Below are positions 30,638 through 48,367 of a DNA stretch of 64,000 nt, one piece after another. Under the pieces are notes generated by a model, which was not told where the DNA came from, searched no databases, and worked only from the letters and a program-made list of their open reading frames with translations. The stretch spans positions 32,001-96,000 of the IMG/VR virus record IMGVR_UViG_3300032607_000125; one strand, given 5' to 3'. How positions within the stretch are numbered: the first letter of the stretch is position 1; each line of letters starts with the position of its first letter. Made by a program: the position numbers and the translations under genes. This stretch comes from a virus.

Positions 30638-32349
30638 TGCTTATTTTTAAAACTCTAACTTGGCAAAACTTTCTATCAACTGGTAATTCTCCTAATACGA
30701 TTATCCTTAATAGATCTGCTAGCACTCTTGTCATTGGTAAGAATGGAGAAGGCAAATCTACAATGCTTGACGCACTGACCTTTGCTTTGTTTGGTAAACC
30801 ATTTCGTAACATTAATAAGCCACAATTAGTGAATAGTATTAATGGCAAAGGTTGTGTAGTTACTATTGAGTTTGAACTTGGTACTGCTGAGTATAAGATT
30901 GTTCGTGGCATTAAACCGGGCATCTTTGAGATCTATCTCAATGGCGTTATGATCAATCAAGACGCAGCAGTTAAAGATTACCAAAAAGTTCTAGAACAAC
31001 AAATTTTACGTCTTAACTATAAGACTTTCACGCAAGTTATTATTCTTGGTTCTGCATCATTCGTTCCATTCATGCAACTACCAGCATGGCAACGTAGAGA
31101 AGTCATTGAAGATATTCTTGACATTGGTATCTTTTCCACTATGAATTCAATCTTAAAAGAAAGAATTAGTGAGACTAAAGAAGAGATGCATAGTATCGAG
31201 AATAAAATCGAGATTGCTAAGAACTCTGTAGTTGCTCAAAAGAAAATCATTACATCGATGGTGTCATCTAAGCAAGAATATGTAGATCATATTCGTAAAC
31301 AGATTGATGATAATGCCGTAGAGATTAAAGCAAATGAAGATCGTTGGGAAACTCTTACAGATCAAATGAATGCTCTACTTGCATCTAGTGATAACGCTAA
31401 AGATCTTAAAGAAGACATTGATAGAGCAACTGCCCTGCGTTCTAAACTAAACTCTAAAAAAGAACACATAGAAGAGACATTGCAGTTCTTTGCTGATAAT
31501 ACTACATGCCCTAGTTGTGCTCAAGATATTCCACATCAACATAAAACTAATATTAGTTCTAAGTTTAATCAAGAATATAATGATAGTGTAGATAACATTA
31601 ATGTTATTCAAGAAGCTTTTGATACTCTAATGGATCGCCAACAAAAGCTCAATGAATTGAATGTAAAACTGTTGACTATTAATTCACAGTCTAATGCTAC
31701 AATTACTGCTAATAAACTATTAACAAAGAGTACTAAAAAACTCAATGAAGACATCGCAGCAACAAAACAAGACACTGGCAATATTGATGTTGAGAAACAA
31801 AAACTTAAACAAGTCGCAGACGACGCAATAGTTCTAATTGATAAAAAGAATGAACTATCCGCTGAACGCAATATCCAAGAAGTATCGGCTTTACTGCTGA
31901 AAGATACTGGAATTAAAACTGCTATCATTAAGGAATACCTTCCTGTCATGAATAAGTTGATCAATGGTTACCTTACTGCAATGGACTTCTATGTTCACTT
32001 TGAATTAGATGAATCATTCAATGAAGTAATTAAATCTAGATTCCGAGATGAATTCACGTATGAATCTTTCTCAGAGGGCGAGAAAATGCGCATAGATTTG
32101 GCTATATTGTTTACATGGCGCCAGATTGCTAAGATGAAAAACTCTGTTAATACTAATCTTCTAATTCTTGATGAAATCTTTGATTCTAGTTTAGATAACT
32201 CTGGTACTGATTACTTCCTTTCTATCATGAATGCTATTGGAGATAAGTCCAACATATTTGTGATTAGCCATAAGGGAGACCAGTTGTTTGACAAGTTTCA
32301 CTCTGTGATCAAGTTCGAGAAGAAGAACGACTTTTCATCTATCGTTTAA
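30637..32349 (+). CDS. gp46: Recombination ATPase gp46 (Rad50/SbcC-like)
   Basis: GKNGEGKST, zinc hook CPSC, FSEGEK.R.DLA, LILDE.FD, SH. Confidence 0.96.
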   Translation: MLIFKTLTWQNFLSTGNSPNTIILNRSASTLVIGKNGEGKSTMLDALTFALFGKPFRNINKPQLVNSINGKGCVVTIEFELGTAEYKIVRGIKPGIFEIYLNGVMINQDAAVKDYQKVLEQQILRLNYKTFTQVIILGSASFVPFMQLPAWQRREVIEDILDIGIFSTMNSILKERISETKEEMHSIENKIEIAKNSVVAQKKIITSMVSSKQEYVDHIRKQIDDNAVEIKANEDRWETLTDQMNALLASSDNAKDLKEDIDRATALRSKLNSKKEHIEETLQFFADNTTCPSCAQDIPHQHKTNISSKFNQEYNDSVDNINVIQEAFDTLMDRQQKLNELNVKLLTINSQSNATITANKLLTKSTKKLNEDIAATKQDTGNIDVEKQKLKQVADDAIVLIDKKNELSAERNIQEVSALLLKDTGIKTAIIKEYLPVMNKLINGYLTAMDFYVHFELDESFNEVIKSRFRDEFTYESFSEGEKMRIDLAILFTWRQIAKMKNSVNTNLLILDEIFDSSLDNSGTDYFLSIMNAIGDKSNIFVISHKGDQLFDKFHSVIKFEKKNDFSSIV

Positions 32350-44101: not shown

Positions 44102-45187
44102 ATGAGCTTACTAGATAAAATTAAAAAAAATACAACGATCAAAGATTCTGCAATTCTCTCGCAGAGTAAATTCTTCACCAAGAAGGATATGATTCAAACG
44201 GCAATTCCAGCAATGAACGTTGCATTGTCGGGAGAACTTGATGGCGGCTTCGTTCCAGGACTTACACTTTGGTGCGGTCCATCAAAACACTTTAAGTCCA
44301 TGTTCTCTTTGATCATGGCAAAGTCCTATATGGACAAATACCCAGATGCAGTCATGGTATTCTATGACTGCGAATTCGGTACACCAACTGCTTACTTCAC
44401 AGCACTTCAAATCGATACTAGTCGTATTCTTCACGTTCCAATTATGAACATGGAAGAATTTAAATTTGACGTAATCAAACAACTTGAAAATCTTGATCGT
44501 GGTGATCGCGTTATCTTTGTTGTAGACTCACTTGGCAATATGTCATCTAAGAAAGAAATGGATGATGCTCTAGAAGGTAAGTCAGTTGCCGATATGTCTC
44601 GTGCTAAACAGATGAAGTCTATCTTCCGTATGATTACACCTTACTTGAATCGTCTTGATATTCCAATGGTAGCCGTTAATCACATCTATATGGAACAAGG
44701 ATTGTATCCTAAGGCTATCGTATCAGGTGGAACTGGTGTTTATCTTTCAGCTGATAATATCTACATCCTTGGTCGTCAACAAGAGAAAGATGGAACTGAT
44801 ATCATTGGTTACAACTTCATTATCAACGTTGAAAAATCACGATATGTTCGTGAGAAATCTAAGATTCCAGTTTGTGTTAAGTTTGAAGGCGGTCTAAGCA
44901 AATGGTCTGGACTTCTAGACATGGCACTTGAATCTAAGCATGTTATTAAACCAAGCAATGGCTGGTACGCCAAAGTAGATCCATCAACTGGAGAGATGGA
45001 AGAAAAGAAATGGCGTATTAAGGATACTGAATCGAAAGAATTTTGGAGTTCTATTCTCCTGGATGCTTCATTTAGAAATTGGGTTAAAGAACGCTATCAG
45101 GTATCACATGGTGATATCATTAATGATCACGAAATCTTAAAGGAAATGGAAACATATGCAGAAGACGACACCTCTGAGACCTCATAG
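44102..45187 (+). CDS. uvsX: RecA-like recombinase UvsX
   Basis: GPSKHFKS, YDCEFG, DSLGN..SKKE, DMSRAK, NH.Y, SGG.G, NVEKSRYV.EK. Confidence 0.96.
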   Translation: MSLLDKIKKNTTIKDSAILSQSKFFTKKDMIQTAIPAMNVALSGELDGGFVPGLTLWCGPSKHFKSMFSLIMAKSYMDKYPDAVMVFYDCEFGTPTAYFTALQIDTSRILHVPIMNMEEFKFDVIKQLENLDRGDRVIFVVDSLGNMSSKKEMDDALEGKSVADMSRAKQMKSIFRMITPYLNRLDIPMVAVNHIYMEQGLYPKAIVSGGTGVYLSADNIYILGRQQEKDGTDIIGYNFIINVEKSRYVREKSKIPVCVKFEGGLSKWSGLLDMALESKHVIKPSNGWYAKVDPSTGEMEEKKWRIKDTESKEFWSSILLDASFRNWVKERYQVSHGDIINDHEILKEMETYAEDDTSETS

Positions 45188-45539
45188 GGTTTTAGGTAAG
45201 ACTTCTCCCACTGGTGAACTTCATGCCTTGTCGTTCACTAGTGGAGAATTTGCTGATATTATATTCTCATACACTGATGTCAAGTTTATTGAACACGATG
45301 ATGCTTTAACTATTGCATTTGAGTATCATTTGCATGACGTACCTCATCACTTAAAAGACTTCAATACAGAAGTTTTTGAAAAAGAACTTGGTGATTTTAT
45401 AACAGCGTTACTCTACTATGGTATTGAACGCGACAAAATGGGATTTATTGATGGCGAACAGAATAGAGAAGACGATTCTTTCGAATCTGATGCACAACGA
45501 AGCGTACTGCCGGAAGGTAGTGCCATTCCTAAAGACTGA
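45156..45539 (+). CDS. Probable head-vertex assembly chaperone (gp40-like)
   Basis: uvsX-X-gp41 synteny; I.FSY..V.F...L.F.Y...F....GD pattern. Confidence 0.6.
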   Translation: MQKTTPLRPHRVLGKTSPTGELHALSFTSGEFADIIFSYTDVKFIEHDDALTIAFEYHLHDVPHHLKDFNTEVFEKELGDFITALLYYGIERDKMGFIDGEQNREDDSFESDAQRSVLPEGSAIPKD

Positions 45540-46086
45540 GTATTTCTCAGATCAATTTGAGAAAGTTGTTGCTCAAGAGTTAGTAGCGTTCTTCACTGAA
45601 TATAATAAGCCAGCATCACTTGAAATCCTTGCGATTCAACTCGGCAATCGCAAGGATCTTCGTGGTGAACAACTTGCTCAGGTTGAAAGCTACATCAATG
45701 AACTGACATTCAAAACTGATAACGATGAATGGTTGTATAAACACACTGAGGCTTTTTGTAAGAAGCAAGCGGTGTATAATGCAATCATTGATTCGTTTGA
45801 AATCATTGAAGGCAAAGACAAAGTTCGCAGTGAAGATGCTATTCCTTCCATGCTATCAGAAGCTCTTGCGGTTTCATTTGATGCATCGGTTGGCCATGAT
45901 TATCTTGAAGACTTTGAAGAACGATACGACTTCTATAATCGTACTGAAGAGAAACTAGAATTTGATCTAGATCTATTCAATAAAATTACAAAGGGTGGTC
46001 TATCGAAGAAGACTCTGAATGTTATTCTCGCAGGCTGCGTTCATCCAGATACTTTAGTTAGAGTGCGATTTAAGAAGAAAGCGTAA
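45451..46086 (+). CDS. gp41: Replicative helicase gp41, N-terminal fragment (195-aa extein plus 16-aa IntN)
   Basis: IEKTIL.NL..NE.Y.RKV.PFLK.EYF, AL.V.FD..VGHDY, TKGGL..KTLNVILAG then CVHPDTLVRVRFKKKA stop. Confidence 0.93.
   Translation: MANRIEKTILSNLMHNEAYCRKVVPFLKTEYFSDQFEKVVAQELVAFFTEYNKPASLEILAIQLGNRKDLRGEQLAQVESYINELTFKTDNDEWLYKHTEAFCKKQAVYNAIIDSFEIIEGKDKVRSEDAIPSMLSEALAVSFDASVGHDYLEDFEERYDFYNRTEEKLEFDLDLFNKITKGGLSKKTLNVILAGCVHPDTLVRVRFKKKA
46036..46083 (+). mobile_element. Split intein N-fragment (IntN, 16 aa)
   Basis: Cys1 block A CVHPDTLV immediately after Walker A ...ILAG; basic tail RVRFKKKA. Confidence 0.9.
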
Positions 46087-46693
46087 ATCCTAATCTATAT
46101 CCATTAGACAAGAATTCGTTTAATCTTTCTTGACGAATTCTTGTTCTGTGTTTTCCATTTGTTACACAAATCATACCTATTAATGATTTTCCTCCAAGAG
46201 AAGCGTATTCAGATCTTTTTTCTTTATTGAAAATTGCAATTCCAGCTTTCATTTGTGATTGTGCGCCAATTTTACCACCTAATGATGCATGTTCTTTAAA
46301 TTTGTCTGGATTGTGAATACCAATCATATTCTTGATTTGCGTGGCTGCACCCATACGCCGCCATTCATTTCGTTCTTCTAAAGACTTTGAGAAAAATCCA
46401 ATGTCATTATCTCTGCAATATTCACCAGTTATTTTGCGCTGATGCGATGTTAAATTTGCACCGAGCATATACATAGCCCTTAAATCATTTGGAGATTTAT
46501 AAATTTTCCATAGTAAATAATGCGCAATAATGTGTTCTCTTATTGTCAAATATGTAAAATTAGAAATGTCATCAGTTCCACCAGCATGTTTAGGAATAAT
46601 ATGGTGCCTATGTAAATTAGAACTAGGTTTCCATTCATTTATGATTGTACTTTTACTCATACATAGATTATAATAAACTTTATCGTAGAACAT
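46070..46693 (-). mobile_element. Antisense free-standing HNH homing endonuclease between the intein halves
   Basis: HRHHIIPKHAGGTDD..N.TYLT.REH..AH.LL; AGGAGA RBS on the minus strand; C-terminal TNG...R.....EFL..GYRLG. Confidence 0.9.
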
Positions 46694-46729
46694 TGGTTTC
46701 TCCTAAATTATCGCCTGTACCGGCTAACT

Positions 46730-46737
46730 TATTTATA
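46730..46737 (-). promoter_or_regulatory. T4-type late promoter driving the antisense HNH
   Basis: Plus strand TATTTATA = TATAAATA on the minus strand, about 37 nt upstream of the HNH ATG. Confidence 0.8.
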
Positions 46738-46753
46738 CTCTAAATTGAAAAAT

Positions 46754-47125
46754 ATGACTTGGATCACAAAAGAAATAAAAATAAATGACATTGAGTCTAT
46801 GCTAGAAGACTATGATGTTGAAGTAGATTCTCCAGATGGGTTTGTCCCAGTATCTCTATTTGTTGATAAGGGAGAATGGGACGAGTTTAAGTTGACAATG
46901 CTGGATGGTCGCACTATTCACGTCAACGAAAATCATCTATTTGAAACCGACTCAGGTTGGCAGTATGCTAAAGATTTAGTTGATACTGGTGTTAATACAT
47001 ATATTAGCGATACTGGCACTTCACTTGGTATTTTGACAAAAACTGGAAATCGTATTCCCATTGTTGATATTCAGGTAGAACACGAGAATCATAGGTATTA
47101 TACTAATGGAGTATCATCGCATAAT
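46754..47125 (+). mobile_element. Split intein C-fragment (IntC, about 124 aa)
   Basis: VDSPDGF, block B VNENHLF, block F VDIQV, block G NHRYYTNGVSSHN followed by Thr+1 (TGVGKS). Confidence 0.92.
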
Positions 47126-47932
47126 ACTGGCGTGGGCAAGAGTTTGTTCATGTGTCACGTCGCCGCTGGCGCTTTAATGCAAGGTAAGAACGTACTGTAT
47201 ATTACAATGGAAATGGCAGAAGAACGTATCGCTGAACGTATCGATGCTAACTTGCTTAACATGACAATGGAAGAACTTAGTAAAGTTACTAAGGACATCT
47301 ACGAGACTCGTCTTGGCAAGTTGATCAAGAAAACTGCTGGTAAGTTAATCGTTAAGGAATACCCCACAGCAGCAGCTCACTCTGGACACTTTAAAGCATT
47401 GCTTGAAGAGTTGAAGATGAAACGTAACTTCATGCCAGACTTAATCGTTATTGATTATCTAAACATCTGTTCTTCTGCTCGTATGAAAGCCGGTGCTGGA
47501 GTTAATTCATACACCTTCATTAAGTCTATTGCAGAAGAACTTCGTGGTCTAGCCGTTGAGTATAATGTACCAATCCTTAGTGCAACTCAAACTACTCGTA
47601 GTGGATTTGGTAATACCGATGTTGGACTAGAAGATACTTCTGAATCATTTGGTCTTCCAGCAACTACTGACTTTATGTTTGCGTTAATCTCCACTGAAGA
47701 ACTTGAGAATCTTAATCAGATCATGGTTAAACAACTTAAGAATCGTTATAATGATGTGAACTATTATAAACGATTCGTTATTGGTGTTGATAGATCTAGA
47801 ATGAAATTATATGATGTTGAAGAATCAGCGCAGAAGAATATATCTGATGCTGGTCAAGATGATGGCCCTGCCTTTGATAAGACTTCATTTGGTAAAAGGA
47901 TGAAAAGTGCCGGTGACGGGTTTACATTTTAA
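46754..47932 (+). CDS. gp41: Replicative helicase gp41, C-terminal fragment (IntC plus 268-aa extein)
   Basis: After HN: TGVGKSLFMCH, YITMEMAEE.IAERIDAN, IDYLNI, LRGLA, SATQTTRSG, SESFGLPAT.D, KQLKNRY. Confidence 0.95.
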   Translation: MTWITKEIKINDIESMLEDYDVEVDSPDGFVPVSLFVDKGEWDEFKLTMLDGRTIHVNENHLFETDSGWQYAKDLVDTGVNTYISDTGTSLGILTKTGNRIPIVDIQVEHENHRYYTNGVSSHNTGVGKSLFMCHVAAGALMQGKNVLYITMEMAEERIAERIDANLLNMTMEELSKVTKDIYETRLGKLIKKTAGKLIVKEYPTAAAHSGHFKALLEELKMKRNFMPDLIVIDYLNICSSARMKAGAGVNSYTFIKSIAEELRGLAVEYNVPILSATQTTRSGFGNTDVGLEDTSESFGLPATTDFMFALISTEELENLNQIMVKQLKNRYNDVNYYKRFVIGVDRSRMKLYDVEESAQKNISDAGQDDGPAFDKTSFGKRMKSAGDGFTF

Positions 47933-47949
47933 TCGTAATGTGTTATAAT
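47921..47949 (+). promoter_or_regulatory. Early sigma70-type promoter
   Basis: TTTACA-17 nt-TATAAT; AGGAG RBS before 47966. Confidence 0.8.
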
Positions 47950-47965
47950 TGTTATAGGAGAATAT

Positions 47966-48367
47966 ATGTCAACTAATTGGGTAAAAGACATGCAGGATAT
48001 GCATGCAAAATTTGGTGTTAACACCGTGATTCGTGGATTGGATAAAGCAAAGCTTGCTGCATTCATTCAATTTCGCATTAAGTTCTTGCAAGAAGAACTA
48101 GATGAAATGATCGTATCAGACAATGGTGATGATACAGTTGATGCATTGATTGATCTTTGTGTGGTTGCTATTGGAACACTTGATGCGCTAGATGTTAACG
48201 CATATACTGCTTGGGATCGAGTGCTAACAGCAAATATGACAAAAGAAATCGGTATTAAAGCGAGTAGACCTAATCCACTGGGATTACCAGACTTGATTAA
48301 ACCAGAAGGTTGGATTGCTCCAAGTCACGCTGATAATGTTGGATTGCTAAGTAAGGTACAAAAGTAA
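47966..48367 (+). CDS. MazG-like / all-alpha NTP pyrophosphohydrolase
   Basis: R..F..EE..E......D..DALID...V..G...V..ANM.K...RP...DLIKPEGW..P. Confidence 0.8.
   Translation: MSTNWVKDMQDMHAKFGVNTVIRGLDKAKLAAFIQFRIKFLQEELDEMIVSDNGDDTVDALIDLCVVAIGTLDALDVNAYTAWDRVLTANMTKEIGIKASRPNPLGLPDLIKPEGWIAPSHADNVGLLSKVQK

Follow-up and report, generated by a model that had tools for sequence, protein, structure and literature searches.

A phage gp41 helicase gene fractured inside Walker A by a VidaL-type split intein, with halves that are probably rejoined by protein trans-splicing

In the literature that we surveyed, natural split inteins whose N-terminal fragment (IntN) is small enough for peptide synthesis are few: VidaL, PolB16, and the AceL, GOS, and Cat TerL inteins. 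IntN has 16 residues in VidaL, 15 in PolB16, 25 in AceL-TerL, and 37 in GOS-TerL (PMC13014065). VidaL and PolB16 are broken directly after strand beta-2, at the S1 site, while AceL-TerL and GOS-TerL are broken later, at S2 (PMC13014065). A second related group is the fractured genes of Dassa 2009 (PMC2677866), in which split-intein halves lie at the break of a gene and only the terminase locus is atypically split. Also, the P-loop is a known intein hot-spot, which in DnaB is insertion point b (Novikova et al., PMC4760082). Here we analyze a locus in a stretch of 64,000 nucleotides (positions 32,001 to 96,000 of IMG/VR virus record IMGVR_UViG_3300032607_000125, hereafter the window) in which gp41, the gene for a DnaB-like replicative helicase, is interrupted within the Walker A motif. 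We conclude that this is very probably a fractured gp41 with a VidaL-type split intein, whose halves would be rejoined by trans-splicing. The conclusion is supported by the anatomy of the locus, the homology and fold of the intein, an allelic series among related loci, purifying selection, and intein-less alleles in close relatives.

The features of the locus, taken from the list of open reading frames (ORFs) and from the raw sequence, are as follows (IntC is the C-terminal intein fragment, and the exteins are the flanking helicase parts):

45451-46035, plus strand: gp41 N-extein, 195 residues, beginning MANRIEKTILSNL and ending KKTLNVILAG inside Walker A
46036-46083, plus strand: IntN, 16 residues, CVHPDTLVRVRFKKKA, comprising block A with Cys1; TAA stop at 46084-46086
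46070-46693, minus strand: free-standing HNH homing-endonuclease gene, 207 residues
46700-46704, minus strand: Shine-Dalgarno sequence AGGAG preceding the ATG of the HNH gene at 46693
46730-46737, minus strand: T4-type late-promoter motif TATAAATA, 5' of the same ATG
46754-47125, plus strand: IntC, 124 residues, from MTWITKEIKIND to NGVSSHN, with its ATG at 46754
within 46754-47125, plus strand: IntC blocks B (VNENHLFE), F (IPIVDIQVEHENHRYY), and G (SSHN)
47126-47128, plus strand: Thr+1, the first C-extein residue, after SSHN
47126-47929, plus strand (to 47932 with the stop): gp41 C-extein, 268 residues, beginning TGVGKS (TGVGKSLFMCHV)

The gap between the two helicase halves is 667 nucleotides long and contains the HNH gene on the minus strand, the 3' codons of which overlap the codons of IntN in antisense. 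The intein is laid out as two ORFs, a 16-residue IntN closed by TAA and a long IntC with an ATG of its own at 46754; this start is backed by Pseudomonas phage PA5oct and by two related loci (L105 and L107), all of which align from residue 1. Joining the exteins gives 195 + 268 = 463 residues and a P-loop that reads AGTGVGKS, and the predicted junction peptide of the ligated helicase is TLNVILAGTGVGK (NVILAGTGVGK). The sequence-only reading of the window had already proposed this anatomy: a stop inside Walker A with resumption about 670 nucleotides later, blocks B, F, and G in an IntC of about 124 residues ahead of TGVGKS, a 16-residue IntN, Thr+1, an intervening endonuclease, and a 463-residue sum with an intact P-loop. 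All of these are present, and the break holds to the base. The contrast that it drew between a basic IntN and an acidic start of IntC is also real (net charge +4 for IntN and −7 for the first 30 residues of IntC).

Profile and similarity searches identify the parts. The N-extein matches the Pfam DnaB N-terminal domain (E = 5e-4) and is 48% identical to the N-terminal part of gp41 from Synechococcus phage S-CAM7 and 84% identical to an intein-less locus (L010). The C-extein matches Pfam DnaB_C (E = 3e-14) and is 67% identical to S-CAM7 gp41 and 70% identical to gp41 of Methylophilales phage Melnitz. When we searched the Protein Data Bank (PDB) with an unsplit homologue, structures of T4 gp41 (8dtp and others) were the top matches. 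For the endonuclease, the Pfam match is HNH (E = 1.3e-4) and the PHROG match is 655, "homing endonuclease" (E = 3.8e-18). Removal of the insert at the RNA level, as a group I intron, was rejected because an Rfam scan of 45300-48100 at E ≤ 1, group I introns included, gave no match.

Pfam recognized no intein or Hint family, whether in IntC or in the contiguous 140-residue form of the intein, so our identification rests on sequence and fold matches to the PDB and on motifs. Against PDB chains, IntC matched VidaL (6vgv/6vgw) first (E = 1.1e-9, about 30% identity), then the gp41-1 intein (E = 1e-5), and then DnaE, DnaX, and DnaB inteins. Against isolate phages, tblastn returned annotated Klebsiella phage terminase inteins (E = 2e-8) and, with full coverage of IntC, the N-terminus of the "UvsX-like recombinase" of PA5oct; a megablast of the locus against the isolate-phage collection gave no match. 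When a contiguous homologue was aligned with fused VidaL, the match spanned the entire intein (E = 1.3e-12). The breaks align as well, at KK(G/A)/M: VidaL reads IRLTKKG / MIEEKKVTV, and the window reads VRFKKKA / MTWITKEIKI. The IntN of the window aligns with that of VidaL, (C)LPKEAVVQIRLTKKG, and both have 16 residues.

For the fold, we modeled a contiguous homologue (locus L013, 68% identical to the IntC of the window) with five extein residues per side and an 11-row alignment. The model had a mean predicted local distance difference test score (pLDDT) of 91.1 and a predicted template-modeling score (pTM) of 0.83. In a Foldseek search of the PDB its best match was VidaL (template-modeling score, TM, 0.86/0.89; root-mean-square deviation 1.7 Å; 29% identity), and the top 50 matches were all inteins or bacterial intein-like domains (Ssp DnaB, Mtu RecA, gp41-1, Npu DnaE, NrdJ-1, and others). 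As modeled, the family would have the HINT horseshoe fold. The break of the window falls in loop 19-24 of this model, between strands 12-18 and 25-30 and before helix 33-39. In the window, the Walker A loop of gp41 is occupied by a mini-intein, at the equivalent of DnaB insertion point b. The mini-intein is in turn broken in the hairpin loop that follows its first long beta-strand, which is the S1 site and also the break of VidaL. From its motifs it appears to be a class-1 mini-intein with an atypical, S1-type split.

The likeness to VidaL is extensive. VidaL itself is described as having a 16-residue IntN, with structures 6vgv and 6vgw (Neugebauer 2017 and Burton 2020, as cited in PMC13014065). 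The two inteins are homologous (E = 1e-9 to 1e-12, about 30% identity), share the S1 split, Cys1, and a basic 16-residue IntN that ends in KK plus a small residue, lack the Thr of block B, have block F as H.NHRYY, end in SHN, and lie in a P-loop. They differ in that the host here is a gp41/DnaB-type helicase, about 70% of positions differ, and the +1 residue is Thr rather than the Ser-like residue of VidaL and PA5oct. The flanks of VidaL (G/../SG) and its greater likeness to the intein of the fractured RecA/UvsX-like gene of PA5oct suggest that VidaL itself came from a RecA/UvsX-type gene, in the P-loop of a recombinase. The kinship with VidaL-type inteins that the sequence-only reading proposed is thus upheld, by homology (E = 1.1e-9) and by the fold of the L013 homologue (TM 0.86-0.89). 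Its view of the intein as new is right insofar as no characterized intein is identical, but the window holds a new member and not a new type, because it is a plain VidaL homologue with the identical split point. Our literature search, the scope of which did not extend to the primary VidaL papers, turned up no earlier VidaL-type intein in a helicase. A further intein, "T4Lh" (for T4-like helicase), was reportedly named in the paper that introduced VidaL and could be more closely related, so a close relative may have been described before.

In the isolated jumbo phage PA5oct (L002, NC_071039.1, 766-3772), the RecA/UvsX-like gene is fractured in the same way: an 81-residue ORF ends FAGESG/CLPETAKVKIRLSKKQS (a 17-residue IntN), followed by a 477-residue ORF with no Pfam match and then by IntC with the recombinase (SSHN/SGKS). 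The annotation of the record gives the fractured pieces just as a hypothetical protein and a UvsX-like recombinase. This gene looks like the isolate-phage counterpart of VidaL.

The other short-IntN inteins (AceL-TerL, GOS-TerL, Cat-TerL, and PolB16 OarG) are similar to the one in the window in that they are naturally split, pair a short IntN (15-37 residues) with a long IntC, and occur in phage or metagenome genes for DNA metabolism. The TerL inteins differ in being broken at S2, after helix alpha-1, with an IntN of 25-37 residues. PolB16 differs in being cysteine-less (Ser1/Ser+1), and it is more distant structurally (8cpn ranked 42 in the Foldseek search, with TM 0.59). The bacterial inteins at DnaB insertion point b (PMC4760082) share the insertion site, but they are contiguous and lie in cellular DnaB, and the likeness of the intein itself amounts to weak PDB matches to DnaB inteins.

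The intein is far from rare. When we searched proteins with the IntC region, at least 345 clusters (at 90% identity) proved to carry it; the best 120 of them all had E < 1e-42 and identities of 58-100%. The rarity in the sequence-only reading was therefore overstated. Most of the clusters are 372-409 residues long (IntC plus C-extein). A few are 567-611 residues long and are full-length helicases with a contiguous intein of 140-147 residues at the same site, as in IALAG/CVHPDTKVKIRFRKRISNFEEKSVNISEIEKL...SSHN/TGVGKS. Relatives with contiguous inteins at this site include P0089, L006, and L013.

As the intein is homologous to an active intein and its catalytic residues are conserved, we infer that it splices; the electrostatic docking of its halves and the target of the endonuclease are likewise inferred. 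The two polypeptides would be translated separately, and IntN would dock onto IntC as a beta-strand, with the opposite charges helping. Cys1 would form a thioester, Thr+1 would attack it, and the terminal Asn124 would cyclize, which would release a 463-residue helicase with its AGTGVGKS P-loop intact. The conservation of the intein is consistent with this scheme. In our alignment of 30 split relatives (A4; 49-98% identical overall), 45 columns of IntC are invariant, including the whole of block B (V57-T65), block F (I101-I106, H110, and N112-Y116), and S121-S122-H123-N124, and so is Thr+1. Across eight N-fragments (A3), the invariant residues are G-1 and, within IntN, Cys1, V, H, P, T, and one Arg.

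Might the halves instead function without splicing, held together non-covalently by the helicase fold or by intein halves that serve as a dimerization module? Split genes whose products assemble without splicing do exist in T4-like phages, such as the intein-less split NrdA of Aeh1 (PMC2677866, PMC3045599), and splicing at our locus is read from the sequence. However, an unspliced complex would leave about 140 residues within the Walker A loop. Also, the residues that only catalysis requires (Cys1, the His of block B, the penultimate His, the terminal Asn, and Thr+1) are invariant across the 30 relatives, which are 49-98% identical; the ratio of nonsynonymous to synonymous substitution rates (dN/dS) of IntC is 0.04; and VidaL, the closest characterized relative, does trans-splice, with a half-life of about 1 min (PMC13014065). 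We consider function without splicing to be quite unlikely.

The junction itself is precise. The gp41 of S-CAM7, an uninterrupted protein of 460 residues, reads NIALAG/TGVGKSLFMCHVAA across the break. We compared the window with 80 IMG/VR loci that encode related helicases, and in the closest three (L010, L011, and L014) the end of the N-extein and the start of the C-extein lie on adjacent bases; these loci are 74-84% identical to the window in the N-extein and 84-87% in the C-extein. As S-CAM7 gp41 and the intein-less relatives are continuous exactly at LAG/TGVGKS, the position of the insertion is not due to chance. (Because S-CAM7 gp41 is an ordinary uninterrupted gene, we rejected as partly spurious a tblastn alignment from query residue 83 that had suggested an intein at this site in S-CAM7 and S-SSM4.)

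Empty alleles also occur in lakes. In lake-metagenome contigs from two studies (X6, with two variants at a depth of about 250-280, and X9), 25-28 other letters lie between 46025/46028 and 47144. These contigs omit the whole cassette of intein and HNH gene and read NVILAGTGVGKS, with synonymous differences around the junction; their translation, flanks included, is KKTLNVILAGTGVGKSLFMCHVA, the very sequence predicted for the spliced product. As these contigs restore an uninterrupted gp41, intein-less alleles of close relatives do exist in lake samples, where alleles with the intein are found as well.

The window is a metagenome assembly, and the coexistence of intein-less and HNH-less alleles in lake samples could be taken to mean that an HNH segment was mis-joined into an intein-bearing gp41 to give a chimeric contig. 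We give this almost no credence because the sequence of the window recurs unchanged, over 45820-46776 and 46760-47163, in contigs that an independent study assembled (X5), and because L105 and L107, which come from other samples, share the gene order, the overlap, and the length of the gap (667-668 nucleotides).

The related loci form a series of five states at this site. First, the site may be empty. Second, it may hold a contiguous mini-intein (L006/L100/L101 and L013/L085-L087). Third, the intein may be split, with a minus-strand HNH gene that overlaps the end of IntN (the window, L005, L012, L090/L092, L093-L096, L105, and L107). Fourth, it may be split, with a plus-strand ORF of 263 residues that is weakly similar to the HNH protein (L007). 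Fifth, the split intein may have no endonuclease gene, its halves being just 20-80 nucleotides apart (L088, L091, and L106). The IntN of the relatives has 14-18 residues and always starts with CVHP[DE/N]T, and wherever the junction is readable, their IntC ends with SSHN/T.

The layout of the locus is that of the fractured genes of Dassa 2009 (PMC2677866), in which the halves stay in their original order and locus and are separated by a free-standing endonuclease gene that has TATAAATA upstream, and in which some alleles lack the endonuclease. Those genes include gp41-1 to gp41-9, the host of which is a T4-like gp41 next to uvsX, as here. They differ from the window in other respects. The gp41-1 to gp41-7 inteins (PMC2677866) interrupt the helicase elsewhere, at position 356 in P-SSM2 gp41, and have a canonical split, with an IntN of 88-105 residues and an IntC of 33-54 residues, as against 16 and 124 in the window. 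(A canonical split intein of the gp41-1 type, with an IntN of about 88 residues and an IntC of about 38, was ruled out for the window on these grounds, as its intein lies in Walker A and is split 16/124.) Also, the endonucleases of those fractured genes are GIY-YIG or Vsr-like (PMC2677866), while the one in the window is HNH.

The late-promoter motif TATAAATA precedes the endonuclease genes of fractured genes (Dassa 2009, PMC2677866) and is also found here, on the strand of the endonuclease and 15-38 nucleotides from the IntC-proximal end, in all seven minus-strand loci that we examined (the window, L005, L012, L090, L093, L105, and L107), as well as on the plus strand in L007. It occurs nine times in the whole window, which is not above chance (7.3 expected), and it is the conserved position that counts rather than the number. 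L088, which is endonuclease-less, retains the motif in its 34-nucleotide gap, and this reads as a scar of endonuclease loss. In L106 (SXGQ01209995.1, 788-916, compared to 46036-46753 of the window), about 570-600 nucleotides of the HNH gene are gone, and the remaining 80-nucleotide gap between the halves contains a perfect hairpin. The IntC of L106 is 97-99% identical to that of the window at the DNA level (synonymous divergence, dS, 0.03), whereas identity in the helicase parts on either side is 77-95% (dS 0.6-1.0); the difference suggests that the cassette was transferred recently. L105 and L107 likewise resemble the window more closely in the cassette than in the exteins. As the cassette is more alike than the exteins, its common ancestor is younger than that of the host gene, as expected for a mobile element; this would be indirect evidence for homing.

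From these comparisons, we propose that the HNH endonuclease probably made the split by invading an allele with a contiguous intein, and that the cassette would have spread by homing. A broader reading, which we offer tentatively and think is on balance doubtful, is that the family preserves the full natural record of how an atypical intein is split. In that case, a free-standing HNH gene driven by a late promoter would have invaded the region of a contiguous P-loop mini-intein that encodes its first hairpin loop (not the canonical endonuclease-domain site), would now home into contiguous or empty alleles, and would have been lost in some lineages to leave the promoter scar, while antisense late transcription of the HNH gene might shut down helicase synthesis late in infection. 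If such a shut-down does occur, then the cassette would be a timing device and not a pure parasite.

Selection on the locus was estimated by the method of Nei and Gojobori from three close relatives with DNA sequence that we found by scanning metagenomes (L105-L107). Between the window and L105, dN/dS was 0.044 for IntC (dS 0.68), 0.095 for HNH (dS 0.56), and 0.068 for the C-extein (dS 1.68). Between the window and L107, it was 0.041 for IntC (dS 1.31) and 0.109 for HNH (dS 0.80). The IntN peptide of L105 is identical to the window's, with two synonymous changes in the DNA. Selection thus constrains the intein halves and the endonuclease no less than it does the helicase, and in IntC and HNH it is strongly purifying.

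These data also bear on whether the locus is a decaying pseudogene, with gp41 killed by the endonuclease insertion and another helicase used in its place. The record is about 80% complete, and no ribosome-binding site is evident 5' of IntC, which would fit with decay. However, the reading frames of both exteins, IntN, IntC, and HNH are all intact and subject to strong purifying selection, the layout is kept in lineages that have diverged to 47-60% identity, and the record has no second match to DnaB_C. A pseudogene therefore seems highly improbable to us. The sequence-only reading had called for a check for an intact gp41 elsewhere, and in the whole record (130,182 bases, about 80% complete by CheckV) the sole DnaB_C match is at this locus.

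Several observations count against a fractured gp41 that is rejoined by trans-splicing. First, no sigma-70-like promoter or Shine-Dalgarno sequence is evident before the ATG of IntC at 46754; our scan for promoters and terminators gave counts no higher than in shuffled sequence and found nothing between the two helicase halves. Second, it is possible that a second helicase lies in the missing 20% or so of the record. Third, the spliced product is a prediction from the sequence. Fourth, the evidence from folding comes from an unsplit homologue that is 68% identical and not from the window's own chains, and Pfam does not recognize the intein. Finally, block B reads N-E-N-H in place of the usual T-x-x-H; its His is present and invariant, but Asn takes the place of Thr. 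(Block B of the active intein VidaL likewise has no Thr.) Even so, we regard a fractured gp41 with a trans-splicing VidaL-type intein as very probable.

At the downstream sites RSGF/ and DTSE/, which are occupied in some relatives, the gene in the window is uninterrupted. Many relatives have C-fragments (for example, L093 2947-4125) that end in the IntN of a second split intein, at DTSE/C.. or RSGF/CLD.., and the latter resembles the IntN of gp41-1. These phages encode gp41 in three pieces, which would require two trans-splicing events.

The isolate helicases closest to the one in the window are those of Methylophilales phage Melnitz and of T4-like cyanophages, and the sequencing runs that contain this stretch (44102-45187 and the whole record) are freshwater and lake metagenomes, with no RNA run among them. 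The phage is thus a freshwater T4-like (Kyanoviridae-like) myovirus. Two other features lie near the break or the start of gp41. A 12-bp inverted repeat (ACAAGAATTCGT .. ACGAATTCTTGT, at about 46100-46145) lies just 3' of the IntN stop, within the 3' end of the HNH ORF, and could be a transcription or translation signal. A plus-strand ORF of 127 residues with no PHROG match (45156-45539) overlaps the end of uvsX and the first 89 nucleotides of gp41, and in phage Melnitz a small ORF is likewise placed, overlapping the start of gp41.

Protein semisynthesis and the editing of proteins in live cells both make use of split inteins whose IntN is short. The engineering usefulness that the sequence-only reading expected is moderate, as the intein depends on Cys1 like VidaL does. 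VidaL homologues with an IntN of 14-18 residues and Thr+1 form a large, diverse set of which this locus is one member, and contiguous counterparts are available for comparison; the set could yield orthogonal or faster variants and shows which positions tolerate change. This family, which is invisible to Pfam, is suited to mining and to the study of intein splitting, although it is neither unique nor surprising to specialists and is no new class. Its allelic series (empty, contiguous, and split with or without an endonuclease) documents, for a break point that is non-canonical, the "gene-breaking" route that has been proposed. For the phages themselves, it would mean that T4-like phages abundant in fresh and marine waters rely on protein trans-splicing for an essential protein of their replication.

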